Below are positions 9,017-49,672 of a stretch of 64,000 bases of DNA, one piece after another. A model generated the notes under the pieces. That model saw nothing but the letters and a program-made list of their open reading frames with translations, did not search any database and was not told the origin of the DNA. The position numbers and the translations under genes were made by a program. The DNA lies in NCBI GenBank assembly GCA_030649135.1, contig JAUSGI010000008.1, forward strand, positions 152,896 to 216,895. The letters run 5' to 3'. Origin of the DNA: a bacterium (lineage in GTDB: Bacteria > Patescibacteriota > Minisyncoccia > Phycocordibacterales > Zambryskibacteraceae). Position 1 is the first letter of the stretch, and every line of letters starts with the position of its first letter.

Positions 9017-10237
9017 ATGAGCGAACTGGGAAATAACGACCATCGGCGTATTGGACAAGAACTCGACTTGTTCGTGTTTTCTGATTTGGTAGGAAGCGGA
9101 CTGCCGATGTGGACTCCTCGAGGCACTATTATTCGCCAGGAGCTAGACAATTTCGTCTGGGAGTTACGCTCCCAGTATGACTATTCGAGAGTAACAATTC
9201 CCCACATTACTAAGCGCGACCTTTACGAAACTTCCGGCCATTGGGAGAAATTCGGTGATGATCTTTTTAGAATAGTTTCTCGCGAGGGCAAGGACTTTGC
9301 ACTCAAGCCTATGAATTGCCCTCACCATACTCAAATCTTCGCTCGAAAGCCGCATTCCTATCGTGAAATGCCCCAGCGCTATGCTGAGACAACCATGGTC
9401 TATCGTGATGAGCAGTCTGGAGAACTCGGTGGCCTCACCCGGGTTCTTTCTATTACTCAAGACGACTCTCACGTCTTCTGTCGCGCTTCTCAAATCAAGG
9501 AAGAGTTTCTTAAAATTTGGGATATGGTGGATAAATTTTACAGTACTTTCGGTTTCAGTCTTAGAGTACGTCTGTCTTTTCGTGACCCAGCTACTCCGGA
9601 AAAATATCTTGGCACACCGGAAATTTGGAACCGAGCCGAAGATGAGCTTCGTGAAATTGCAACAGAACGTGGGGCAGATTTCTTCGAAGGCCTGGGGGAG
9701 GCCGCCCTTTACGGACCGAAGCTTGATTTCGTTGCCAAGAATGCCGCGGGTCGCGAATGGCAAGTAGCGACTATTCAACTTGATATGAACCTACCCGAAA
9801 GATTTGACTTGTCATGCATTAATGAGAAAGGAGAGAAGGAGCGTATTGTGATGATCCACTCTGCTATTACCGGGTCGATTGAACGCTGCGTGGCAATCAT
9901 TCTTGAACATTTAGAAGGCACTCTCCCTCTCTGGCTCTCGCCTGTCCAAGTCAAGATACTGCCCATCGGTGAAGCACATTTTGAATACGCAAAAAATGTT
10001 TTTGAGAAATTAAAAGCAGAAAATATTAGGGTAGAATTGGACGATTCAAATGAAAGCCTGGGCAAGAAAATCAGAAATGCCAAAACCGAGAAGATTCCTT
10101 ATATGTTGGTAATTGGAGACAAAGAGGTTTCAGAAAGTAAAGTGACACTTGAGAGTCGTAACGATGAAAAGTTAGGTCAGATTGGAATTGAAGAGCTAGT
10201 TTCTAAACTCAAACAAGAAATAAAAGGGCGAGTTTAG
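9017..10237 (+). CDS. thrS: Threonyl-tRNA synthetase, short form lacking the N-terminal TGS/editing domains
   Basis: Begins at the ThrRS catalytic-core motif DHRRIGQELDLF. Class II core plus a C-terminal anticodon-binding domain. 406 aa. Confidence 0.85.
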   Translation: MSELGNNDHRRIGQELDLFVFSDLVGSGLPMWTPRGTIIRQELDNFVWELRSQYDYSRVTIPHITKRDLYETSGHWEKFGDDLFRIVSREGKDFALKPMNCPHHTQIFARKPHSYREMPQRYAETTMVYRDEQSGELGGLTRVLSITQDDSHVFCRASQIKEEFLKIWDMVDKFYSTFGFSLRVRLSFRDPATPEKYLGTPEIWNRAEDELREIATERGADFFEGLGEAALYGPKLDFVAKNAAGREWQVATIQLDMNLPERFDLSCINEKGEKERIVMIHSAITGSIERCVAIILEHLEGTLPLWLSPVQVKILPIGEAHFEYAKNVFEKLKAENIRVELDDSNESLGKKIRNAKTEKIPYMLVIGDKEVSESKVTLESRNDEKLGQIGIEELVSKLKQEIKGRV

Positions 10238-14998: not shown

Positions 14999-16040
14999 CT
15001 TCGTTTTCTACAAGTAAATCTCGGAAACTTTCCAAATCTTCAAGAATAATGCCGGTACCACGTGCCACAGCGGTGAGAGGGTCGGCGGCTACATGCACCG
15101 GTATATGAATCTCACTTTCGATAAGTTCGGCGAGTCCCTTGACCAAGGCTCCTCCGCCGGAGAGATAAACTCCTCTATGCATGATGTCACTCAAAATATC
15201 GGGCGGGGTAGACTCCAATACTTCCTTAATCGTCTCTATGAGACTTTCCATTGATTGAGAAAGGGCGTCGCGGATATCCATGTCGGTAAGAATAATTTCT
15301 CTGGGAAGACCGGAGACCAGGTCGCGCCCTTTGACCGGCATTTCAAGCGGGGCGTGGGTGGGCAAAACCGAGCCAATGGAAATCTTGACCATCTCGGCAG
15401 TCTTTTCCCCCAAGAGCACTTTGAATTGATTACGAACATGAGCAATGATGTCCGAGTTAAACTTATCTCCGGCGATGCGCAAATTTCTGGACTTAACCAC
15501 TCCGCCAAGCGAGATAATGGCGATATCGGAAGTGCCACCGCCTATGTCTATGACCATATTGCCGACAGGGTCATGAATGGGCAGGCGCATGCCAATAGCG
15601 GCCGCCATCGGTTCCTCAATAATATGCACCTCTCCGGCGCCGGCGTTCCTGGTGGCGTCACGCACGGCGCGAATTTCCACATCTGTGATGCCTGACGGTA
15701 CACCAACCACCACTCTTGGGCTAAAAACTTTATTCGAACCTACCGTAGCTCTACTTAAAAGATAGCTAATCATCTCTTCGGTAATCTCGAAGTCAGAAAT
15801 CACGCCGTCTACCAAGGGCTTGATAGCCAAGATATGCCCTGGAGTACGCCCAAGCATTGCCCTGGCCTCTGTACCGATGGCCACAATCTGTCCGGTCTTT
15901 TGATTGACCGCCACCACCGACGGCTCGTTAATTACAATCCCCTTGCCGCGCAGATAGACTAAGGTATTGGCTGTACCAAGATCGATACCGACATCGTGGG
16001 AAAAAAGTCTGCGGAAGTTTTTTATACCGGGAAATTTCAT
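14976..16040 (-). CDS. mreB: Rod shape-determining protein MreB (actin homolog)
   Basis: GIDLGTANTLVY...EPSVVA actin-fold motifs. Confidence 0.9.
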   Translation of the reverse strand: MKFPGIKNFRRLFSHDVGIDLGTANTLVYLRGKGIVINEPSVVAVNQKTGQIVAIGTEARAMLGRTPGHILAIKPLVDGVISDFEITEEMISYLLSRATVGSNKVFSPRVVVGVPSGITDVEIRAVRDATRNAGAGEVHIIEEPMAAAIGMRLPIHDPVGNMVIDIGGGTSDIAIISLGGVVKSRNLRIAGDKFNSDIIAHVRNQFKVLLGEKTAEMVKISIGSVLPTHAPLEMPVKGRDLVSGLPREIILTDMDIRDALSQSMESLIETIKEVLESTPPDILSDIMHRGVYLSGGGALVKGLAELIESEIHIPVHVAADPLTAVARGTGIILEDLESFRDLLVENEGELPPKK

Positions 16041-17257
16041 TACCGTTTAAGTTTGTTAATGATATCCTCAACCTTAAGTTCTTCGGTCTTGCCGGTAGCC
16101 CGCTCTTTAACCTCTAACATTTTTGATACAAGAGCTTTTGTGCCAATTATCACCTGCATGGGAATACCGATGAGGTCAGCATCAGCGAACTTCTCTCCGG
16201 CGCGCATGTCACGGTCATCGTAGAGCACTTCGATACCATGTGAGATAAGCGTCTGGTACGCCTCGTCCGCTAATTTCTTCGCTTCCTCTGTCAGAGAAAG
16301 CAGGTGAACTTGGAAAGGCGCGACCTCCCTTGGCCAGACAATACCTTTTTCGTCGGAGAGCACTTCCACTACCGTGCCCATAAGCCGTCCGAGACCAATA
16401 CCATAAGCACCCATAAATATTGATTTCTTCTCCCCCTTTTCATCTTGGAACTGAAGTCCGAAAGCGTCTGGGTATTTTGAACCATAAGGAAAGATGTTGC
16501 CTACTTCTATTGATTTTCTACCTTCTCCGCCCCTATCTTCGACTTCCTTATTTACCGCCATTTTCTTGCTCTCATCTGTTATATAAATGATGTCTTCACC
16601 CGCTTCAGATAGGGTTTGGAACTCGTCGGTCAAATTTGTGGTAAATGACCCTCCAGCAGCAACCGTACGATAAGTTTTTTCACCCAGACCAACTCGGGCA
16701 AATATCTTTAGATAAGCCCCGGCGCACTTTTCGTAAAATTCTTTGAATTCATCTTCAGTCCGATTGAAAGAATACATATCTTTCATCAGAAACTCCCGCA
16801 CACGCATGATACCACTCTTGGCGCGCAGTTCATTCCTGAATTTAGTCTGGAATTGGTAAGTATATAGAGGTAAATCTTTGTAAGAACTCACAAACTCTGT
16901 GAGCATTGCTGTCATCGGTTCCTCATGAGTGTTAGCGATACCTAGATCGTTGCCATTCGCAAGTTTGGTCTTGAACCAATTGTCTACTACTTTATCGTCC
17001 CACCTGTTCGTCTTCTTCCATATTTCTGGGTCCTGAAGAGTGGTCATGAGAACCTCTTGACCACCTATAGCATTCATCTCCTCGCGGATGATATTTTCGA
17101 TATTCTTCACTACTCGCAGACCTAAAGGTAGATACGAATAGACCCCAGCTAACTCCTTATGAATGAAGCCCGCGCGAGTGAGGAGAATGGCATTCTTAGA
17201 GACTTCGTCCTTGGGCGCTTCCTTGCGCGTCTTGGTAAATAGTTCGCTCTGTCGCAT
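16040..17257 (-). CDS. proS: Prolyl-tRNA synthetase, compact form without INS editing domain
   Basis: N-terminus is collinear with bacterial ProRS (MRQSELFTKTRKE...LTRAGFI...YSYLPLG). 405 aa. Confidence 0.85.
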   Translation of the reverse strand: MRQSELFTKTRKEAPKDEVSKNAILLTRAGFIHKELAGVYSYLPLGLRVVKNIENIIREEMNAIGGQEVLMTTLQDPEIWKKTNRWDDKVVDNWFKTKLANGNDLGIANTHEEPMTAMLTEFVSSYKDLPLYTYQFQTKFRNELRAKSGIMRVREFLMKDMYSFNRTEDEFKEFYEKCAGAYLKIFARVGLGEKTYRTVAAGGSFTTNLTDEFQTLSEAGEDIIYITDESKKMAVNKEVEDRGGEGRKSIEVGNIFPYGSKYPDAFGLQFQDEKGEKKSIFMGAYGIGLGRLMGTVVEVLSDEKGIVWPREVAPFQVHLLSLTEEAKKLADEAYQTLISHGIEVLYDDRDMRAGEKFADADLIGIPMQVIIGTKALVSKMLEVKERATGKTEELKVEDIINKLKR

Positions 17258-27250: not shown

Positions 27251-27898
27251 ATGGGTAATAGAGACTATAAAAAATTTGCCACTGGAACTATCTTTCATAT
27301 ATACAATAGAGGCAATAACCGAGAAAAAATTTTCCATGATGAGCAGGACTATAAAGCGCTAATATTTAGAATTGGTCTGGCACTAGGATTCGAAGAAAAA
27401 GAACTGTCACATCAATTATGTCACCAACCATATTCAAGAATCAGGATTACAGGCACACATAAAGGAAAATTCAAGCTACACGCTTTTTGTCTTATGCCAA
27501 ATCATTTTCACTTACTTATCGAACAGTGTGAAGATGTGCCTATATCGAAAATTATCTCGAAAATATGTGCAAGTTATGCTAAATATGTAAATAAAAAATA
27601 CAAAAGAGTCGGGCATGTATTTCAGGATAAATTTAAAGCAGTACTTATGGAATCAAATGAACAACTTATGTGGATTTGCACATATATACACATGAATGCA
27701 GTGAAGGACAGTATGGTCAAACATCCAGATGAATATGTATGGAGTAGCTACAATGACTATACAACTGACAGAAATCTGCCAATCATAAATACTGACTTTT
27801 TGATCTCACTATTTGGTGATAAAAATAGTTTCAAAAAAGAGACCCTCCGCCCTTACTCAGATAGCCTGTCAAAGACCGTCTTTGACATTAAGAGTTGA
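27251..27898 (+). CDS. REP-associated tyrosine transposase (RAYT) / IS200-like Y1 HUH transposase, paralog 1
   Basis: YxxxRGN N-terminal motif (FHIYNRGNNREKIF), HUH motif CLMPNHFHLLIE and catalytic Tyr region CTYIHMNAV. AT-rich gene flanked by REP palindromes. Confidence 0.75.
   Translation: MGNRDYKKFATGTIFHIYNRGNNREKIFHDEQDYKALIFRIGLALGFEEKELSHQLCHQPYSRIRITGTHKGKFKLHAFCLMPNHFHLLIEQCEDVPISKIISKICASYAKYVNKKYKRVGHVFQDKFKAVLMESNEQLMWICTYIHMNAVKDSMVKHPDEYVWSSYNDYTTDRNLPIINTDFLISLFGDKNSFKKETLRPYSDSLSKTVFDIKS
27867..27887. repeat. REP-like palindrome tgtcaaagaccgtctttgaca (copy 1b)
   Basis: Identical to copy 1a. Overlaps the last codons of RAYT-1 (KTVFD). Confidence 0.8.
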
Positions 27899-32350: not shown

Positions 32351-32427
32351 TCTAGAGGACCTTGGGAGCACCTGCCATACCGGCATGGTGCGCTCGTTAA
32401 CCCAGTTCATTCACAAGGAGACAAGAG

Positions 32428-33564
32428 ATGACACGACGCATTGCTTTGTTCACGCTGGTCGCAATCCTCTGGATTGCTCAGACCAGCCTCGCGCAGGCAC
32501 CCTATCAGGTGAAGGAGGGAGACACCCTCTACGCCCTGAAGGGGATCTACTCGGCTAACCAACCCGAGTGGAAAGCGCTCACGATCGTGAACCCGCAGCT
32601 CGCGGAACCCGGCCGAGCCTTCACCGATACGCAGAAACGATTTATCGTCATCCTGCGCCTGGGTGAACGGCTCAAGGGCCTCGAAATGCTCGGCATAACC
32701 GCCCAGCCGATACTCGTTACCGGGTTCGTAGCGCCAGCGCCGACCACGAAAAACGTCGTCACAGACATCACTGCCAGTGCCGATAGCCACAACAGGTGGC
32801 TCATCGCGCTCATGGCAACAGTGTTGGCGCTCATCATTCCCTACCTGATCTTCCGGTATCTGCCGGAATCGCGTAGGCCGAACCTTCCGTTCCTCGGGAG
32901 GTATAACCCGGCACTCACCACGAACCCTGTCACGGCGGCTCCCCCGATGGTCGCCGGAGGCATCGCCTCTGACAATCATGACGCTATCAGGCGCCAGTTC
33001 CGGGAACAGGCGGCGCGGACGTACGCGTCGACGCACGGCGGTGTTATACCCCAGATGAGTGACATCCGCATCGTCGGCAACATCATCCATGGTACGCTAC
33101 ACGACGTCTGGGAAACCTCAGACGCCAATGGCCGCTGGATTCCCCGCCGCTACAACGGCGAGCCAGGGTTCCAGGCGATGGTCTCGGTCAACAACGCCGA
33201 ACCAGCGCTCCAGACATGGTCACAACCATGTGGCAACGATCTGCGTATCGGGCGACGCTACCGTGGCGGGCGCTTCATATCCCGCCCTGCGGCCGGGACG
33301 ATTCCGGCTCAGGCTCCAGCCACTCCAGTGGCTCCGCTTCGTCCGCACATCGCGGTGGCGCAGGAGCCGGACGGGCAGGTGGTCACCATCACGGTCGGCG
33401 GTATGCGTTACACCACTCATGGCAATGACATCCACGTCAACGTGGATCAGGGGGGCGCTGTGACGGATGTCACAGCGAACGGCCAGATCCGCGTGGCGAA
33501 GGTGCCGAAGCGGACGAAACCACGTGTGGTACGACCGGCGGCGACAGGTACACGCGACAAGTAG
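32428..33564 (+). CDS. Secreted/membrane LysM-domain protein (GC-rich island)
   Basis: Signal peptide, LysM motif YQVKEGDTLYALKGIY, internal TM. About 60% GC versus ~47% background. Confidence 0.6.
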   Translation: MTRRIALFTLVAILWIAQTSLAQAPYQVKEGDTLYALKGIYSANQPEWKALTIVNPQLAEPGRAFTDTQKRFIVILRLGERLKGLEMLGITAQPILVTGFVAPAPTTKNVVTDITASADSHNRWLIALMATVLALIIPYLIFRYLPESRRPNLPFLGRYNPALTTNPVTAAPPMVAGGIASDNHDAIRRQFREQAARTYASTHGGVIPQMSDIRIVGNIIHGTLHDVWETSDANGRWIPRRYNGEPGFQAMVSVNNAEPALQTWSQPCGNDLRIGRRYRGGRFISRPAAGTIPAQAPATPVAPLRPHIAVAQEPDGQVVTITVGGMRYTTHGNDIHVNVDQGGAVTDVTANGQIRVAKVPKRTKPRVVRPAATGTRDK

Positions 33565-35575: not shown

Positions 35576-36235
35576 CTATAGGATCTTCAAATAATCTAGC
35601 TCTTCTTCTAGAAGTTTTGCTGGACTTGTCCTAGTAAACTCTTGGTATTTGTCTGGGCCTTTGAATTGACCTAGAACGATTTCTGATAAAAGCAGACTTC
35701 CCCATCGATTTTCTTTTATAAAATCTTGATAGCTTGACCAAGGATATTGGTCTTCTTTCTTAAACCACTTCCCAATCTCTCTCGGGTTTCTATGAATATA
35801 GCTAGACAGATATAAAAGCTGATGATCACCTTCTATATGAACCGCACGATAAGGCCCTTGAAAAACATGTCCAGATTTATCATATCTGGTATTGTAATAT
35901 TTGGCATAAGCATTAAGCACTCTCTGCATATAAGCTGCTATGCCTTCTTCTTCAACTTCTTTGACCAATAAGTGGAAATGGTTTGGCATGATACGGAAAG
36001 AAACAAGCTCAACTGTACGCTTTTTAACAATCTCCTCTGTATTATCTAACACCCGGTGTTTGACGAAATCCTTTACTGACCTACCAACCTGTGGAAAAGT
36101 TACTTCTGATTGGAAGTAAAGAATGAGGAAAAGAAATCTGTTGTAGTCTCCTGTATCATGAAAAATAACTTGTTTGTGTACACCCCTATTACACAAATGA
36201 TAATACTCGTTTGGAGACAACCGTGTTCTTCTCAT
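35576..36235 (-). CDS. REP-associated tyrosine transposase (RAYT)/IS200-like, paralog 2
   Basis: YYHLCNRGVHKQVIF, HUH FRIMPNHFHLLVKE, Tyr motif SYIHRNP. AT-rich. Confidence 0.75.
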   Translation of the reverse strand: MRRTRLSPNEYYHLCNRGVHKQVIFHDTGDYNRFLFLILYFQSEVTFPQVGRSVKDFVKHRVLDNTEEIVKKRTVELVSFRIMPNHFHLLVKEVEEEGIAAYMQRVLNAYAKYYNTRYDKSGHVFQGPYRAVHIEGDHQLLYLSSYIHRNPREIGKWFKKEDQYPWSSYQDFIKENRWGSLLLSEIVLGQFKGPDKYQEFTRTSPAKLLEEELDYLKIL

Positions 36236-36245
36236 ATATTCATTA

Positions 36246-36270
36246 TGTCAAATACCCGGTGTTTGACAAA
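36246..36270. repeat. REP-like imperfect palindrome tgtcaaatacccggtgtttgacaaa (copy 2b)
   Basis: 10 bp upstream of the RAYT-2 start. A degenerate third copy lies inside the gene at 36045-36064. Confidence 0.7.
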
Positions 36271-36287
36271 CTTATATATCCTTAATA

Positions 36288-36842
36288 TTACTTGACCGGA
36301 TGGTCAAGTTGATAAATCTGGGTATCGTAGCCTCTGGTTTCTTCGTCATTTCTGGAAAGTCCCAGAGATTCAAGTTCTTTGAATAATTCTTCCCTGACTT
36401 CCTCTGCGTCGATGTCTTCTTCAGTCAGCTTTTCAAGCTCGATAAATGTCCCAAGTTTTTCCACTTCATCCAGACAAATCTCATACGGTCCGAGTTTGCC
36501 CTTCCGACGCATTTTCTTTACCTCGACTACCGGATACCACCCCAGTAGCTCAAGCATATGGTGGACTTGTTTCGGATCTGCCACTTCTGTCTCGCACTCA
36601 ATATTGTCGCTCTCGTTGGAACGCTGCTGTTTGAGGGTAAGCTCAGCAGAATCCTTCAAGTAGCGGATGCGAATAACAATATCTCCCTCCTGTGCCGATT
36701 GGAATTCATTCCTCGAACCCTTGAGAGAATAGACAACATCATGCTGGCTTATCGGTTCTGAAAGAACGCAGCCTTTCTCTTTGAGCTTTTGCTCAATTTC
36801 TTCCAGATTCTTCGCTTTCAGCTTTACTTCTATTTCTCTCAT
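36288..36842 (-). CDS. CYTH-domain protein (class IV adenylate cyclase / triphosphatase-like)
   Basis: N-terminal MREIEVKLKA (ExExK motif) and acidic C-terminal strands. Confidence 0.65.
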   Translation of the reverse strand: MREIEVKLKAKNLEEIEQKLKEKGCVLSEPISQHDVVYSLKGSRNEFQSAQEGDIVIRIRYLKDSAELTLKQQRSNESDNIECETEVADPKQVHHMLELLGWYPVVEVKKMRRKGKLGPYEICLDEVEKLGTFIELEKLTEEDIDAEEVREELFKELESLGLSRNDEETRGYDTQIYQLDHPVK

Positions 36843-37421: not shown

Positions 37422-37955
37422 ATGAATTCTAATTTCTGGAAAGAGCTCATCAAACTTGTTCTCATATCCCTCCTAATAGTAGTGCCGTTCCGTGTCTATA
37501 TTGCTCAACCCTTCTTGGTGGATGGCGCGTCTATGGACCCGACATTCGAGACGGGAGACTATCTCATAGTCGATGAGCTTACCTACCATTTCAAGCAACC
37601 GGAGCGCGGTTCTGTCGTTATCTTCAAATATCCCAAGGACCCCAGAAAATCTTTCATTAAACGTATCATCGGCCTGCCTAACGAAACAGTGACCCTCTCC
37701 GACGGACAGGTCACTATTGTAAACACCGCATATCCGGACGGTTTGGTGCTTGATGAACCGTATGTGGTGTTGAGGAAGTCCGACAATTTGAGTTACACGC
37801 TTGGCCCGGGCGAATATTTCGTCATGGGGGACAACCGCTTGGCGAGTGCCGACTCGCGTATCTGGGGCTCGGTACCGGAGGAAAACATTATCGGCCGACC
37901 TGTTATACGCCTGCTCCCTCCGGCGCTTTTCCCCGGTGATAACTCCAATGATTGA
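37422..37955 (+). CDS. lepB: Signal peptidase I
   Basis: GASMDPTF (Ser box), KRIIGLPNE (Lys box), GDNRLASADSR. Confidence 0.85.
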   Translation: MNSNFWKELIKLVLISLLIVVPFRVYIAQPFLVDGASMDPTFETGDYLIVDELTYHFKQPERGSVVIFKYPKDPRKSFIKRIIGLPNETVTLSDGQVTIVNTAYPDGLVLDEPYVVLRKSDNLSYTLGPGEYFVMGDNRLASADSRIWGSVPEENIIGRPVIRLLPPALFPGDNSND

Positions 37956-39066
37956 ATTCGATAGAGCTCTTGTCACCGCCGCTTACTTCGGTTTCCGCCC
38001 CATCATCGCTCCGAAAATTACCCGGCATGATATTGAATTGACTAGAATTTGCGGAGAGTATCCGCATTATGACGCCATAGAGAAAGCCGCTGTGATACGA
38101 ACGTATCTGGAACAGGACTTCGCTTCCTTACCGCATCCTATTGCTTTGGTTTACGAAAAACCGGCTGCAAAAAAAAGACTGGGCGGCTACGCCCTCCACT
38201 TCATCGGCTCGTCTTCGGGTATAGCGGAGGCAACCTTGATCCAAACCGCGCTGGCTATGCTCTCGGAAGAAGGACATAAAAATTTGAAGGTAGACATCAA
38301 CTGTATCGGCGACCGAGATTCCATAAATACTTACGAGCGGGAACTCGTAAGCTACGTACGTAAGTTCGGCGCCCATTTGTCGGACGAATTAAAACAGAGT
38401 ATGAAATCAGACATCTTCAACCTCTTTAGACTGGAGGCGCCGGAAGCTCTCCTTCTACGTGAAACGGCGCCGTCTTCCATAACCTTCCTGTCTGCGCAAA
38501 GTCGAATCTATTTCAAAGAAGTACTGGAATATATTGAAGCTTTGGGCATAGAGTTCCGTCTGACACCAGAACTCGTGGGCGAACGAAATCACGCTTCTCA
38601 CACTATTTTTGCCATTAAAAACACGGTGGGCGAACATAAAGATATTTTAGCCGTGGGCTATCGTTACTCTCGCATGGCACGTCTCTTCGGGCTAAGGAAA
38701 GAAATTCCCATGGCCGGAGTAAATATTTTTGCCGCATCTTCCGGCAGTACTGGCAAGCGAGTTTACAAAGAATTACCAAAACCGAAATTCTGTTTGGTCC
38801 AATTGGGTCGTGAGGCCAAGATTAAAACTCTCTCGCTCATAGAACTCTTGCGTTTACACCGTATACCACTACATCACCTGCTCGGTAAAGATAAAATAGC
38901 TACCCAACTCTTGAGTGCCGAAAATTTGCGGGTGCCCTACCTCATCATCATTGGACAGAAAGAGGCACTCGACAATACCGCCACCATCAGAAATGTAGCC
39001 ACACGCGCCCAAGATACGGTAAGTATCGCCAACCTGCCACACTTCCTCAAAAATATTACACTCTAG
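37948..39066 (+). CDS. Histidyl-tRNA synthetase-like paralog (class II core-like + HGTP anticodon-binding domain), N-terminally short
   Basis: HFIGSSSGIAEATLIQTALAMLSEEG...LKVDINCIG resembles the HisRS/HisZ dimer-interface region. C-terminal anticodon-binding fold. Motif 1/2 residues are not evident. ATGA overlap with lepB. Confidence 0.55.
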   Translation: MIEFDRALVTAAYFGFRPIIAPKITRHDIELTRICGEYPHYDAIEKAAVIRTYLEQDFASLPHPIALVYEKPAAKKRLGGYALHFIGSSSGIAEATLIQTALAMLSEEGHKNLKVDINCIGDRDSINTYERELVSYVRKFGAHLSDELKQSMKSDIFNLFRLEAPEALLLRETAPSSITFLSAQSRIYFKEVLEYIEALGIEFRLTPELVGERNHASHTIFAIKNTVGEHKDILAVGYRYSRMARLFGLRKEIPMAGVNIFAASSGSTGKRVYKELPKPKFCLVQLGREAKIKTLSLIELLRLHRIPLHHLLGKDKIATQLLSAENLRVPYLIIIGQKEALDNTATIRNVATRAQDTVSIANLPHFLKNITL

Positions 39067-39598
39067 CTTTGAGATACTCGAGCATGGTCTTCTGGTCGGA
39101 AACTTCGAATGGATCGTTGGGACAATTATCCTGCAAACCGGGTTCGATAAAAATCTTTTTTATTTCACCGTCTTCGACATACATACTGTAACGCCAGGAA
39201 CGCAGACCGAATCCCAGGTCATGCTTTTCAACGAGCATACCCATGCCTTTGCTAAAGTCCGCCGAACCATCGGGCAATAATTTCACTTTCTTGATTTTCT
39301 GGTCTTCCTGCCAGGCATTCATAACGAAGGCGTCATTCACACTCAAGCAGATAACTTCGTCGACACCAAGCTTTTTAAATTCATCATAATGAGCTTCGTA
39401 ACCAGGCAAGTGCTGGGAGGAGCAGGTCGGAGTGAAGGCTCCCGGCAGAGCGAACAGAACAATTTTTTTGCCTTTAAATATCTCATCCGAAGTCACATCC
39501 ACCCAGGCAAAAGGATTGTCTCCGCAGACCTTTTTATCGTGAGTATGAGTTTTGAAAGTAACTTTGGGTATCCGTTTAGGTGTGTCCATGTTTGGCAT
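39056..39598 (-). CDS. Peroxiredoxin, Prx5-like (AhpC/TSA family)
   Basis: LPGAFTPTCS peroxidatic Cys motif. Confidence 0.8.
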   Translation of the reverse strand: MPNMDTPKRIPKVTFKTHTHDKKVCGDNPFAWVDVTSDEIFKGKKIVLFALPGAFTPTCSSQHLPGYEAHYDEFKKLGVDEVICLSVNDAFVMNAWQEDQKIKKVKLLPDGSADFSKGMGMLVEKHDLGFGLRSWRYSMYVEDGEIKKIFIEPGLQDNCPNDPFEVSDQKTMLEYLKARV

Positions 39599-39640: not shown

Positions 39641-39889
39641 ATGGTTAACATCGAGGTGGTCAAGGGAACCAACGAAAATAATTTAAGCGTCCTCCGACGC
39701 TTCACTAAACGCGTCCAGTCTTCGGGTGTTCTGCCACGCGTCCGTTCCAAGCGCTACTCTCAACGCCTGCCATCCAGAAATACCAGGCGCGCCAAGACTA
39801 TTGGCTATCTTAAGAAAAAAGAGATAACCGCCGAACTTATCAAGCTTGGTAAAATAAATGAAGTCAGTAAATTCTCGCGCCGACGCTAG
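39641..39889 (+). CDS. rpsU: 30S ribosomal protein S21
   Basis: VLRRFTKRVQSSGVLPRVRSKRYSQRLPSRNTRRAK matches the S21 pattern (ALRRFKR..EK.GVL). The upstream part of the long ORF is antisense to the peroxiredoxin gene and was rejected. Confidence 0.55.
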   Translation: MVNIEVVKGTNENNLSVLRRFTKRVQSSGVLPRVRSKRYSQRLPSRNTRRAKTIGYLKKKEITAELIKLGKINEVSKFSRRR

Positions 39890-40202
39890 AAATTTCGAGA
39901 AAATAAAAAATAAAGTTCTGGGAAGTGACTACGAACTCTCGCTCGTCTTCGCTTCCGATACACTGACACGGCGTCTTAACCGCACTTATCGCGGCATTGA
40001 TAAGCCGGCAAACGTACTGGCCTTTCCGCTCTCGAAGACAAGCGGAGAAATTTTTATAAATCGTTCACGCGCGAAACCTTTTAGCGTCAAATATCTCTTT
40101 ATACACGGTCTTTTACATTTGAAAGGAATGTCACACGGGGATACAATGGAGCAAGCAGAAAAAAAATTATTACATGGCGCGTCAAATCATAGCGGGCATT
40201 GA
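39858..40202 (+). CDS. ybeY: Endoribonuclease YbeY (rRNA maturation)
   Basis: NVLAFPL...HGLLHLKGMSHGD (H3xH5xH metal motif). Confidence 0.7.
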   Translation: MKSVNSRADARNFEKIKNKVLGSDYELSLVFASDTLTRRLNRTYRGIDKPANVLAFPLSKTSGEIFINRSRAKPFSVKYLFIHGLLHLKGMSHGDTMEQAEKKLLHGASNHSGH

Positions 40203-41376
40203 TATCGGTACTTCTTCAATCAAGGTAGTTATTGCCGAGGGCGTGGTTGAACACGGGCACACGGTGCCCAAAATTATTGGTACCGGTTCGAACGAATCAC
40301 GGGGCGTGTATCGCGGTTACATTACCAATAAAACCGAAGCAGGAAAGTGCGTGGAAGCGGCCGTCCGACGGGCAGAAAAAATTGCGGGCGTCAAGGTTAG
40401 GCGCGCTTATGTCTCTTTTGGCGGTATTGGCCTCGGCAGTATAGTAGCAAACGGCTCGGTAATCATATCCCGCGCCGACCTGGAGATTACCGAGCGAGAC
40501 ATTGCTTTGGCGCTTGAGGCCGCAGAAGCGGCTATCCCGCCCGCCGCTTCCATCAATAAAAAAATCATCAATACCATCCCCATTGAATATAAAATAGACG
40601 GTAAGGCAGTATGGGGCCAGGCCCTGGGTCTCAAGGCGCAAAAGCTTGAGGTTAAGGCACTTTTCATCACCTGTCTCGAACATCATCTAACCGACCTCAT
40701 CAGCACGGTAGAAATGGCAGGCATAGAGGTCGCGGATGTGGTAGCGGCACCGGTGGCTTTAAGCCTGGTCACTCTATCCAAAAAACAAAAGAGGGTGGGA
40801 TGTCTCCTCGCCGATCTCGGTGCGGAAACGTTCTCCGTGGTGGTCTTCGAGAACAACAATCTGCTGTCGCTCGAAGTCTTTCCTATCGGCGGCAACGACA
40901 TTACCAACGATATCGCCCTAGGACTAAAGGTTGCGCTTGAAGATGCCGAGAACGTGAAGCTTGGTTTCGAAAGAAGGATAACCTATCCGAGAAAGAAACT
41001 GGAAGAAATCGTATCGGCGCGACTGGACGATTGTTTCGAACTCATCGAAACGCATCTTAAATCGATTGGTAGGAATGCCTTACTGCCGGCGGGTATCATC
41101 ATAGCGGGCGGCGGTGCCGCCATCGCGAACATAAAAAGTATCGCGGAGAATTCTCTCAAACTCCCCTCTCAAACAGCGGAAGTTTATTTCGGCAACACCG
41201 CCGAAGGTAAGATCAAGGACCGTACTTGGGCAGTGGCTTGCGGACTTGCGATAGTCGGATTTAATACTGATGACGTGGATCGTTCCATAGGTATTAGGAA
41301 CGGCACTCTCATTAGAGAAGGGGGCAAACGTTGGGGCCGAGTTATTTCGCGCTGGATTTCTCAATTTTTACCATAA
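40174..41376 (+). CDS. ftsA: Cell division protein FtsA
   Basis: IAGIDIGTSSIKVVIAEG actin-fold N-terminus. Sits upstream of ftsZ. Confidence 0.85.
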   Translation: MARQIIAGIDIGTSSIKVVIAEGVVEHGHTVPKIIGTGSNESRGVYRGYITNKTEAGKCVEAAVRRAEKIAGVKVRRAYVSFGGIGLGSIVANGSVIISRADLEITERDIALALEAAEAAIPPAASINKKIINTIPIEYKIDGKAVWGQALGLKAQKLEVKALFITCLEHHLTDLISTVEMAGIEVADVVAAPVALSLVTLSKKQKRVGCLLADLGAETFSVVVFENNNLLSLEVFPIGGNDITNDIALGLKVALEDAENVKLGFERRITYPRKKLEEIVSARLDDCFELIETHLKSIGRNALLPAGIIIAGGGAAIANIKSIAENSLKLPSQTAEVYFGNTAEGKIKDRTWAVACGLAIVGFNTDDVDRSIGIRNGTLIREGGKRWGRVISRWISQFLP

Positions 41377-41465
41377 AATAAGAAGATAGCATCTACATTA
41401 AGTCAACTGCTTTTCTTTTCTGCCGCCTCTGATAAGATAGGCGCATCTAAATTTAATTTAAGAGC

Positions 41466-42665
41466 ATGCCACAAATCAAACCAGAGGTAGAATCTTTCGC
41501 CAGAATCAAGGTCATCGGTGTAGGTGGTTCCGGTAAAAATACCGTCAACCACATGATTAACTCCAAAGTGAGGGGGGTTGATTTCATCGCCGTCAACACC
41601 GATGCCCAAGACTTGCATCATTCGCTCGCCAAGAAGAAAATTCATATTGGCAAGAATCTGACGCGTGGACTCGGGACTGGTATGAACCCAGAATTGGGCA
41701 AGCGTGCTGTCGAAGAAACTAAGGAAGAAGTGCAAGAAGCCATCAAGGGCGCGGACATGATATTTATCGCAGCAGGTATGGGTGGAGGGACTGCTTCCGG
41801 CGCCGCACCGGTTATCGCTCGCACCGCCAAAGAAAATGGATGTTTAACTGTCGCTGTTGTGACTAAACCCTTCTTCTTCGAAGGACAACAGCGTATGAAA
41901 ATCGCCGAAGCGGCTATCGAGGAACTCAAACAAGCTGTTGACGCCCTTATTATTATTCCCAATGATCGCCTACTTCAGACTGTAGACAAAGATATCACCG
42001 CCAAGAACGCTTTCGCTATTTGCGACAACATTTTAAGAGAAGCGGTGGAAGGTATCTCGGACCTCATTACCACCCCGGGCATCATCAATATCGACTTCGC
42101 GGATATCCGTTCGGTGATGGAGAATGCCGGAGCCGCGCTCATGGGTATCGGCTCTGCTTCGGGAGAAAACCGCGCCGTGGAAGCGGCCAAGGCCGCCATC
42201 TCTTCCCCTCTCCTTGAAATATCCATCAATGGCGCCAAGGGTGTGCTCTTCTCAATCTCCGGCGGAGACGATGTTACAATGTTTGAAATTCAGGATGCGG
42301 CTAAGGTTATCACCGAGTCGGTTGACCCCAATGCCAAAATTATCTTCGGCACAGTTCGGGATGACAAACTCAAGAAAGGAGAGATTAAGATTACGGTCAT
42401 TGCTTCCAATTTCTCTGACAATTATTCGAGTTCGAGGAAGGCGGCGTCGCTCTTCCAAACTTTTGGCAGCAGCAGCAATAGTAACGAGGAACAGAGCGTC
42501 AAGGGTAAGATTTTTAACGCCGTTCCCCAACCGCACAAAGAAGTTCCCAAACCGGTAGTGGAGGAGAAAAAAACCGAACACAAGCAGGTTCCCCCTCTCA
42601 TAGAAGACAACGACGATGACTGGAGCGCAGTACCGGCATTTCTCAGACGTTCGAAACTTAAATAG
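41466..42665 (+). CDS. ftsZ: Cell division GTPase FtsZ
   Basis: KVIGVGGSGKNTVNHM and GGGTASGAAPVIA tubulin signature. Confidence 0.95.
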   Translation: MPQIKPEVESFARIKVIGVGGSGKNTVNHMINSKVRGVDFIAVNTDAQDLHHSLAKKKIHIGKNLTRGLGTGMNPELGKRAVEETKEEVQEAIKGADMIFIAAGMGGGTASGAAPVIARTAKENGCLTVAVVTKPFFFEGQQRMKIAEAAIEELKQAVDALIIIPNDRLLQTVDKDITAKNAFAICDNILREAVEGISDLITTPGIINIDFADIRSVMENAGAALMGIGSASGENRAVEAAKAAISSPLLEISINGAKGVLFSISGGDDVTMFEIQDAAKVITESVDPNAKIIFGTVRDDKLKKGEIKITVIASNFSDNYSSSRKAASLFQTFGSSSNSNEEQSVKGKIFNAVPQPHKEVPKPVVEEKKTEHKQVPPLIEDNDDDWSAVPAFLRRSKLK

Positions 42666-47608: not shown

Positions 47609-49672
47609 ATGGATGAGAAGTTTCTTAAACCCTATAACCCCGAAGAAACGGAAAGCCGGATATACGCGCTCTGGGAAAAGAGCGGTTTTTTTAACCCGGA
47701 TAATTTGCCCGAGAGGCACGAGAAACCTTTCACTATTGTCATGCCTCCCCCGAATGCCAACGGCAGTCTCCATTCTGGTCACGTCCTTTTTATAACTCTT
47801 GAGGATATCATCATCCGATTCAAGAGAATGCTGGGTTATAAAGCCCTTTGGATTCCTGGCGCCGACCATGCCGGTTTTGAAACTCAAGTGGTATTCGAAA
47901 AAAAACTGGAGAAGGAAGACCGCTCAAGGTTCGGTATGGATCCTAAGGCTTTGTATCAGGAAATTTTGGCCTTTACCCTTGAGAATAAGAAAAATATGGA
48001 GTCTCAAGTTCGTTCGCTCGGCGCTTCCTGTGATTGGTCTCGCGAAAAGTTTACCTTAGACCAAGATGTGGTGCTAAAGACCCAAGAGACTTTTATAAAA
48101 ATGTTTAATGAGAAGCTTATCTACCGCGGCCAGCGAGCAACCAATTGGTGTTCCAAACATCAAACTTCCCTTTCCGAGGTGGAAACCGAATCGGCTGAAG
48201 AGACTTCTCCTTTTTACTACTTCCAATACGGACCATTTGAAATCGGCACGGTCAGGCCGGAGACTAAGTTCGGCGACAAATACGTTGTTATGCATCCAGA
48301 TGATACTCGGTATGCCCAATACAAACACGGCGACAAACTAGAACTCGAATGGATTAACGGGCCGATTACAGCCACGGTTATCAAGGACGAAGCAGTAGAT
48401 ATGGAGTTCGGTACGGGTGTGATGACTATTACCCCTTGGCATTCGCAAGTGGACCTCGAAATTGCCAAACGCCACAATTTGGATATGGAACAAATCATAG
48501 ATTGGCAGGGCAAGCTCTTACCTATTGCCAGCGAATTCTCCGGCCTGAATATAAAAGTTGCCAGACCGAAAATAGTGGAGAAACTTGAATCTAAGAGACT
48601 CCTCACCCGCATCGACAAAGAATATAAAAATATCATTAAAAAATGTTATAAATGTGGCACTATTATAGAACCACAAGTGAAAGACCAGTGGTTCGTAAAG
48701 ATGGAGCCATTGGCAAAGTTGGCGATTGACGCTGTCAATCGCGAGGAAATTAAGTTTATTCCAGACAACTACGAGAAAATTTTTAAATACTGGATGGAAC
48801 ATCCCATCGATTGGAACATTTCTCGCCAAATTGTCTGGGGTATTCCCATACCGGCATGGTTTCGCACCAATGAGATAGCGGTCGGGATAGAAAAACCTAC
48901 GGGTGAAGGTTGGATTAAGGACTCCGATACATTCGATACTTGGTTCTCAAGCGGACAATGGCCGCTCCTCGTAACCGGCTACCCCGATGGAGACGACTAT
49001 CAGACATTTTACCCGACGGATGTGATGGAGACTGGGCATGACCTCATATTTAAGTGGGTTCCGCGCATGGTTATTTTCGGCCTCTATTTGTCAAAACAGG
49101 TACCCTTCCACACAGTCTACCTGCATGGTCTCGTCAATGATGCCCAAGGTAAAAAAATGAGCAAATCCAAAGGCAACGTGGTCGACCCCTTAGTCCTAAC
49201 CAAAAAATACGGCACCGACGCTCTGCGTATGACTCTCATCGTCGGCAACACGCCGGGAACTGACCTTGCGTTACGCGAAGACAAAATCAAAGGATACAAA
49301 AACTTCGCCAATAAAGTTTGGAATATCGCGCGATATGTGCTCTCGCAAAAAAGAGACGGCGAACTTGATAAAGAACTGGCCGGCGAATTTGACGCGTTAA
49401 CCAAAGATGTAACGGATGATATGGAAAATTACCGTTTCTACATTGCCGCGGAGAAAATTTACGCGTATGTCTGGCACCGCTTTGCCGACGAAATTATCGA
49501 GGAAAGCAAAAAACAATCAGAGCGTGGAGAGACTCTATACTATATCCTTGAGAATTCGCTGAAACTGCTCCACCCATTCATGCCCTTTATCACCGAAGAA
49601 ATTTGGCGGGAAATGTGTCAGGACAAATTATTGATGATAGAACCATGGCCTGTAAATAAAAATGAGTCCTGA
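47609..49672 (+). CDS. valS: Valyl-tRNA synthetase, short (687 aa, no C-terminal coiled coil)
   Basis: PPPNANGSLHSGHVL (HIGH), TRPETKFGDKYV editing-domain motif, KMSKSKGNVVDP, LHPFMPFITEEIW. Confidence 0.85.
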   Translation: MDEKFLKPYNPEETESRIYALWEKSGFFNPDNLPERHEKPFTIVMPPPNANGSLHSGHVLFITLEDIIIRFKRMLGYKALWIPGADHAGFETQVVFEKKLEKEDRSRFGMDPKALYQEILAFTLENKKNMESQVRSLGASCDWSREKFTLDQDVVLKTQETFIKMFNEKLIYRGQRATNWCSKHQTSLSEVETESAEETSPFYYFQYGPFEIGTVRPETKFGDKYVVMHPDDTRYAQYKHGDKLELEWINGPITATVIKDEAVDMEFGTGVMTITPWHSQVDLEIAKRHNLDMEQIIDWQGKLLPIASEFSGLNIKVARPKIVEKLESKRLLTRIDKEYKNIIKKCYKCGTIIEPQVKDQWFVKMEPLAKLAIDAVNREEIKFIPDNYEKIFKYWMEHPIDWNISRQIVWGIPIPAWFRTNEIAVGIEKPTGEGWIKDSDTFDTWFSSGQWPLLVTGYPDGDDYQTFYPTDVMETGHDLIFKWVPRMVIFGLYLSKQVPFHTVYLHGLVNDAQGKKMSKSKGNVVDPLVLTKKYGTDALRMTLIVGNTPGTDLALREDKIKGYKNFANKVWNIARYVLSQKRDGELDKELAGEFDALTKDVTDDMENYRFYIAAEKIYAYVWHRFADEIIEESKKQSERGETLYYILENSLKLLHPFMPFITEEIWREMCQDKLLMIEPWPVNKNES

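Follow-up and report, generated by a model that had tools for sequence, protein, structure and literature searches.

The 64-kb window analysed here (64,000 nucleotides of contig JAUSGI010000008.1, from a member of the Zambryskibacteraceae) carries at positions 37948..39066, on the plus strand, a gene of 372 codons plus stop whose product resembles histidyl-tRNA synthetase (HisRS) in sequence and fold, and which we describe as a degenerate ortholog of the HisRS gene, hisS. The gene is a single intact open reading frame (ORF), and its product is identical to the NCBI protein P0001, named there 'His/Gly/Thr/Pro-type tRNA ligase C-terminal domain-containing protein'; JGI calls its relatives 'histidyl-tRNA synthetase'. 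Its ATG overlaps by 8 nt with the TGA of the upstream gene lepB (signal peptidase I, Pfam Peptidase_S26; 37422..37955, plus strand) in the sequence ATGATTGA, and GGTGA is found 9 nt 5' of the start. An earlier note on this DNA had reported the same ORF and its overlap with lepB, both of which are borne out, and had read the gene as a HisRS paralog of possibly regulatory, pseudo-synthetic or divergent catalytic nature; as will be seen, that observation is partly confirmed and its interpretation partly supported.

The protein was compared with family profiles and aligned with HisRS from E. coli, with HisRS sequences of the PDB and with canonical HisRS of Parcubacteria (the E. coli sequence used scores 285 bits against a profile of the canonical Parcubacteria enzymes). 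HisRS is the closest match of the 372-residue protein in both sequence and fold, and its top match among solved structures is the HisRS of Staphylococcus aureus (1qe0, E 8e-18), residues 47-368 of the query aligning with residues 83-419. The alignment to the family is nevertheless partial: on TIGR00442, the hisS equivalog of NCBIfam, the protein scores 94.5 bits and so stays at about a third of the cut-off of 286.75, with only profile positions 127-405 matched. The HisZ model TIGR00443 gives 12 bits, below its cut-off of 271.65. The sole Pfam match is HGTP_anticodon (PF03129; residues 290-369, E 5.8e-11), in agreement with the anticodon-binding domain that had been recognized at the C-terminus, and the stretch aligned earlier to QFHQLGCEVFG was also correctly placed, LHFIGS falling on the GCEVFG strand. 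An AlphaFold2 model computed with 21 homologs has a predicted local distance difference test score (pLDDT) of 80.5 and a predicted template modelling score (pTM) of 0.79. A start about 100 residues late relative to HisRS had been proposed, but the N-terminus is only ~31-36 residues shorter, since YFGF (residues 13-16) aligns with YYGF (residues 44-47) of canonical Parcubacteria HisRS; the further loss of length is internal, with deletions around the His loop, in the loop of motif 2 and in the helix of motif 3.

In class II synthetases motif 1 forms the dimer interface, motif 2 binds ATP and A76, and motif 3 binds the γ-phosphate of ATP. We counted residue retention over 81 degenerate and six canonical loci, using HisRS reference numbering for the catalytic positions (R259, Q127, Y264, E115, E83, E131 and T85). 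The LRPEGT loop, which binds histidine, is reduced to a remnant, HYDAIEKAAVI (38065..38097, plus strand), in which the canonical MRPEGTA has become ..AIEKA, and the T85 position is occupied by K or R in 66 of the 81 relatives. Motif 2 is degenerate (IALVYEKPAAKKRLGGYALHFIGS; 38140..38211, plus strand), the fRxE strand and the loop being ~9 residues shorter and E131 replaced by His. Canonical FFRHENPQxGRxRELRQFGxE thus corresponds to VYEKPAAKKRLGGYALH, from which fRxE is gone; the segment where fRxE and the arginine loop of class II motif 2 were sought reads VYEKPAAKKRLGGYALHF, with neither the motif 2 Arg nor its Glu, and counterparts of E115 and Q127 are both missing from all relatives (0/81 for either). 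The HisA motif survives as ELVGERNHASHTIFA in place of canonical LVRGLDYYTRTVFE (38569..38613, plus strand; by alignment to HisRS). Within it, LVRGLDYYTRT has become LVGERNHASHT, the catalytic Arg (E. coli R259) being replaced by Gly, so that the HisA signature is lost; no relative has a counterpart of R259 or of Y264 (each 0/81).

Motif 3 is similarly affected. In its remnant EIPMAGVNIFAAS (38701..38739, plus strand) the strand is kept and the helix and Arg are gone, canonical PxVGxGxGx(D/E)R corresponding to PMAGVNIFAAS, which contains no Arg and does not amount to a class II motif 3. The AlphaFold2 model has a strand at residues 255-260 followed by a low-confidence linker in place of the motif 3 helix, and this region is hypervariable across the degenerate family. 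Among 130 family representatives conservation is lowest in the His-loop region, motif 2 and motif 3, blocks that rank with the most conserved ones of canonical HisRS. The C-terminal catalytic segment is only 24% identical to canonical Parcubacteria HisRS. Of the features that had gone unseen in the first reading of the sequence, the motif 2 Arg and the Arg of motif 3 are indeed absent, as is the HisA Arg, and the proposed check of active-site conservation gives the same answer in all 81 relatives for R259, Q127, Y264 and E115. Counterparts of E83 and E131 are partly retained in the wider family, and 38 of the 81 loci have a Lys at the position of the motif 3 Arg.

The segment corresponding to motif 1 had been thought lost together with motif 2; the loss of motif 2 stands, but that of motif 1 does not. 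The motif-1-like segment VTAAYFGFRPIIAPKI (37972..38019, plus strand), which contains YFGFRPIIAP, is conserved, G15 and F16 being invariant in canonical and degenerate sequences alike, and P18 and P22 within the Zambryskibacteria group. The helical HisRS insertion domain (38302..38562, plus strand; AlphaFold2 helices at residues 123-198) is also conserved, and FKEVLEY is among the columns in which it equals the canonical consensus. HisB persists as the strand AVGYRYSR (38650..38673, plus strand; canonical GGRYD), in whose VGYRYS 80 of the 81 relatives have the Arg and 73 of the 81 have the Tyr. The class IIa anticodon-binding domain (38779..39063, plus strand; PF03129) is 51% identical to that of canonical Parcubacteria HisRS. 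In the complex of Thermus thermophilus HisRS with tRNA(His), E386-E388, K397 and Q404 read the GUG anticodon, and the insertion domain of canonical HisRS clamps the acceptor stem of the tRNA (PMC4357726). By alignment, E339 (38962-38964), R348 (38989-38991) and Q355 (39010-39012; all on the plus strand) are the counterparts of T. thermophilus E388, K397 and Q404, and these three positions are E, R and Q in 81/81 degenerate and 6/6 canonical loci. Conservation among the 130 representatives is highest in the anticodon-binding domain, at the end of the insertion domain (FKEVLEYLE), in HisB and in the strand and helix that follow motif 2. All 85 strongly conserved columns agree with the canonical consensus, either exactly or by conservative change, and thus no new signature has evolved.

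This degenerate protein belongs to a large family. The 120 best protein matches share 63-100% identity with it and measure 328-400 residues, many of them being labelled Candidatus Zambryskibacteria. An exhaustive profile-free search of 1.84 billion cluster representatives returned 299 representatives at E <= 1e-30, and the degenerate family spans hundreds of 50%-identity clusters, with named members that include Taylorbacteria, Giovannonibacteria and Parcubacteria. The same losses are found in the best 150 representatives bar a few, the exceptions numbering five by canonical-profile score. Comparison of the window gene with a 72%-identical Zambryskibacteria ortholog (locus L001) gave a ratio of nonsynonymous to synonymous divergence (dN/dS) of 0.08 (pN 0.15, pS 0.71, with dS near saturation). 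The ORF is unbroken in every related locus but one and intact in ~80 species-level genomes. We conclude that it is a real gene under strong purifying selection. In the single exception (L032, JBBUES010000009.1, 4090-5332), the degenerate hisS ortholog is split over two frames, through either a frameshift or faulty assembly. The longer members of the family were examined for fused domains that might hint at a function, and none was found, nor did we find a published description of this degenerate HisRS family in the literature.

The relationship of the gene to hisS is revealed by its position. The closest canonical enzyme in the representative search, P0269 (365.7 bits on TIGR00442), has close relatives among the HisRS of Yonathbacteria, Azambacteria and other Parcubacteria. 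The canonical gene order is S1 protein, pth (minus strand), lepB, hisS, rpsU, ybeY, ftsA, ftsZ and trxB, and the degenerate gene takes the identical place in the window, as it does in Zambryskibacteria, Taylorbacteria and more distant members; in the window, rpsU and ybeY lie downstream at 39641..40202 (plus strand), followed by ftsA and ftsZ at 40174-42665. A scan of GTDB with one genome per species, using an anticodon-domain pattern shared by both types, returned at least 548 relatives, the best 80 of which come from 80 different genomes and comprise 76 degenerate and four canonical genes. Of the GTDB records with this Parcubacteria-type locus, many bear the title 'uncultured Candidatus Saccharibacteria bacterium' and one (L036) the title 'Nitrospira sp.'; these titles are probably generic or wrong taxonomic labels, or the contigs mis-binned. 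The neighbourhood comparison covered 89 sequences (L001-L088 and the window region). lepB lies directly upstream in 78/81 degenerate and 6/6 canonical loci, and ybeY follows closely in 73 of the 74 degenerate loci in which it is present and in four of the six canonical ones (the remaining two have no ybeY). Two more canonical loci, L089 and L090, have the same order according to their gene tables.

In a neighbour-joining tree of FtsA+FtsZ, the loci bearing canonical hisS are basal and the degenerate loci all fall together in a single clade, suggesting one ancient loss in place; the canonical-profile score drops along the tree from ~380 to ~225 toward Zambryskibacteria. On the strength of synteny and of this single clade, the gene is a positional ortholog of canonical hisS and not an extra paralog, as had been supposed. 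Intermediate sequences are also found: P0256 and P0262 retain the motif 3 Arg and P0252 retains HisA, and all three are without the motif 2 Arg. Judged from these sequences, the differing motif losses would fit a single ancient relaxation of catalytic selection, followed by independent decay.

Some variation of the locus was noted along the way. Between the hisS-like gene and rpsU there is a peroxiredoxin gene (39056-39598, minus strand), which overlaps the 3' end of the former convergently by 11 nt. The Zambryskibacteria loci L001, L002 and L008 have this gene, and the remaining loci retrieved by protein look-up (L003-L007, L089 and L090), whether canonical or more distantly degenerate, do not. 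Two IS200/Y1-type transposase-like genes are present in the window, at 35576-36842 (minus strand) and 27251-27898 (plus strand). The first of these, together with a CYTH-domain gene, is placed between the S1 gene and pth, and no such insertion is seen in the Zambryskibacteria loci L001 and L002.

Another HisRS was sought by tblastn with E. coli HisS and with a profile of 120 canonical Parcubacteria HisRS run against six-frame translations of the window and 87 related loci (L001-L007 and L009-L088, L008 being left out; ~1.4 Mb). Neither the 64-kb window nor the 10 kb to either side of the gene at the 87 profile-searched loci yielded a second HisRS-like sequence, and the gene tables of L089 and L090 list no second HisRS-family gene, which brings the total to 89 of 90 related loci. 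Two other class IIa ORFs of the window were considered as a hidden HisRS and rejected, as they encode threonyl-tRNA synthetase (ThrRS) and prolyl-tRNA synthetase (ProRS). A canonical duplicate relocated elsewhere is weakly disfavoured: all eight canonical loci (8/8) have their gene in the ancestral slot, and the best 80 of the at least 548 GTDB matches come from as many genomes. Neither hisG nor other histidine biosynthesis genes turned up among the scanned ORFs of the window or in the gene tables for loci retrieved by protein look-up. tRNA(His) genes, which were sought in all loci for their identity elements, are absent from them, and Rfam detects five tRNAs and nothing else in the window. 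Histidine accounts for 1.58% of the 14,232 residues in 31 window proteins; it is thus normally used, and His-tRNA(His) is needed.

Four other synthetases of the window served as controls, and each passes its curated cut-off: ThrRS (512.6 bits against 383.65), lysyl-tRNA synthetase (LysRS; 587 against 468), ProRS (407 against 306.7) and valyl-tRNA synthetase (ValRS; 767 against 704). The genome therefore shows no general erosion of its synthetases. As a separate observation, three of these enzymes are short. ThrRS (9017-10237, plus strand) has only 406 residues and matches TIGR00418 positions 169-564, comprising the catalytic core and anticodon-binding domain without the N-terminal TGS and editing domains. 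ProRS (16040-17257, minus strand) is a minimal protein of 405 residues that bacterial proS models match in two pieces, its inserted editing (INS) domain being apparently absent. ValRS (47609-49672, plus strand; 687 residues) covers positions 2-700 of an 860-position model and is missing the C-terminal part. Elsewhere in the window, one ORF at 3399-4319 (minus strand) joins a NusB domain (residues 10-139) to a NUDIX hydrolase domain (171-288), an unusual fusion. The most GC-rich stretch (32407-33564, GC fraction 0.567) has long ORFs overlapping on both strands; the 378-residue ORF of its plus strand has no Pfam match, and the region has no Rfam match.

Taking these observations together, we consider it likely that the gene is a vertically inherited, in-place descendant of hisS that encodes a non-catalytic, tRNA(His)-binding pseudo-synthetase in a large clade of Parcubacteria (Paceibacteria). 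The clade includes Zambryskibacteria and Taylorbacteria and probably also Giovannonibacteria, which were seen as protein only. According to this proposal, the ancestor of the clade would no longer have needed catalysis by the protein in the HisRS slot. Decay would then have set in among the elements for activating ATP and histidine, namely the N-terminal segment, the LRPEGT loop, motif 2, the helix of motif 3 and the arginine of HisA. Purifying selection would have preserved the segment resembling motif 1, the HisB strand, the insertion domain with its clamp on the acceptor stem, and the domain that binds the anticodon, including the residues that read GUG. The retention of the parts that contact tRNA and the decay of the catalytic ones suggest that the protein most likely still binds tRNA(His), forming no histidyl-adenylate and charging no tRNA. 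It is probably a dimer, and its role could be to sense, protect or sequester the tRNA, or to bind it as the partner of another enzyme. Elsewhere in these genomes there would then be a separate gene for a functional HisRS, which is probably xenologous. Several points weigh against this proposal. The binding of tRNA(His), albeit most likely, is deduced from conserved residues; the replacement HisRS that the proposal needs is an assumption, since the search of the window and of the 10-kb surroundings of 89 out of 90 related loci yielded no functional HisRS; and Lys and Arg abound in the aligned loops of motifs 2 and 3, so that an unconventional mode of phosphate binding is conceivable.

Another view would make the protein a divergent but active HisRS, the sole one in these genomes, in which the Lys and Arg residues of the remodelled motif 2 and 3 loops and the Arg-Tyr of HisB would form the active site. 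The position of the gene in the hisS slot, the lack of any other HisRS in the sequences searched (the window and the loci), the normal use of histidine codons, the partly persisting counterparts of E83 and E131 and the frequent Lys at the motif 3 Arg position would all suit such an enzyme. However, the candidate replacement loops differ in length and sequence across the family, four catalytic residues have no counterpart in any of the 81 loci, the motif 3 helix is deleted, and sublineages have lost different motifs, as expected under relaxed catalytic selection. The ATP- and histidine-binding regions are, moreover, the least conserved of the family. To our knowledge no active class II synthetase is without both the motif 2 and motif 3 arginines, and for this reason activity of the protein as a synthetase appears very unlikely from its sequence; a true but divergent HisRS, one of the possibilities raised in the earlier note, is an unlikely explanation of the whole. 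Rather doubtful, too, is the suggestion that the protein is the tRNA-binding subunit of a two-gene HisRS and pairs through its motif-1 interface with a separate catalytic subunit or with a xenologous HisRS. Class IIa synthetases are obligate dimers (PMC4357726), and the motif-1-like segment, insertion domain and anticodon-binding domain are all kept; yet no partner gene lies near the searched loci, no gene fusion points to one, and the family shows poor conservation of the N-terminal half, which contributes to the interface.

The clade might also lack any conventional HisRS and obtain His-tRNA(His) by an unrecognised enzyme or route, with the pseudo-HisRS possibly serving as a scaffold that presents tRNA(His); we give this little credence, but if true this would be the first bacterial lineage beyond extreme endosymbionts without a recognisable synthetase for an amino acid that is always directly charged. 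That the gene is a decaying pseudogene or functionless relic is most improbable. The catalytic motifs are indeed gone and one GTDB locus is frameshifted, but the low dN/dS, the intact ORFs of so many species-level genomes, the hundreds of clusters and the many invariant columns speak otherwise, and the strength of purifying selection leads us to reject a dead relic. The pseudo-synthetase reading, in which the catalytic residues are gone family-wide from a strongly conserved gene, is the one of the earlier suggestions that gains support. The regulatory alternative, in which a HisZ-like protein acts as the allosteric subunit of ATP phosphoribosyltransferase in histidine biosynthesis, is hardly credible, and we reject it on account of the profile score on TIGR00443, the full anticodon-binding domain, the context, with no hisG among the window ORFs scanned or in the gene tables consulted, and the descent in place from hisS.

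If the protein is the non-catalytic descendant of hisS that we propose, a probable new tRNA(His)-specific binding protein is identified, and the testable question is raised of what charges tRNA(His) in these organisms. Pipelines that label the gene 'histidyl-tRNA synthetase', as at JGI, may overstate the translation capacity of these genomes, and marker sets based on hisS would treat the clade inconsistently.

Pseudo-enzymes derived from synthetases are known, for example HisZ, the HisRS-like domain of Gcn2 and the GlyRS-like accessory subunit of DNA polymerase γ (POLG2), and each of them is an added copy or domain and not the replacement of a working synthetase. HisZ is a HisRS paralog that acts with HisG in histidine biosynthesis and typically has no functional anticodon-binding domain; the window protein differs in being the hisS ortholog, in keeping the residues that read the anticodon and in having no hisG among the neighbouring genes examined. 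POLG2 stems from a different parent synthetase and is of eukaryotic origin, its ligands being the DNA polymerase and DNA. With bacterial HisRS (TIGR00442; T. thermophilus 4RDX and canonical P0269) the protein shares the order of class II core, helical insertion domain, linker and class IIa anticodon-binding domain, in addition to the chromosomal slot, the HisB strand and the anticodon-contact residues. It differs from them by its internal deletions and by the lack of the motif 2 Arg and Glu, R259, Q127, Y264 and the motif 3 helix and Arg. HisRS is thus the closest family, yet the window protein, as far as its sequence indicates, fails the defining catalytic features of that family. By analogy, the closest functional counterpart would be the HisRS-like domain of Gcn2 (8T7T, 9C9Q; PMC11363354), which belongs to a eukaryotic eIF2-alpha kinase of several domains and has no specificity for tRNA(His), whereas the window protein is a free-standing bacterial protein of 372 residues that keeps the contact residues for the His anticodon and has no extra domains, either itself or in its longer relatives. 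Unlike those added copies and domains, the present protein would be the ancestral hisS product, converted where the gene stood throughout a large clade of ultra-small bacteria, with exactly those parts kept that touch tRNA(His).

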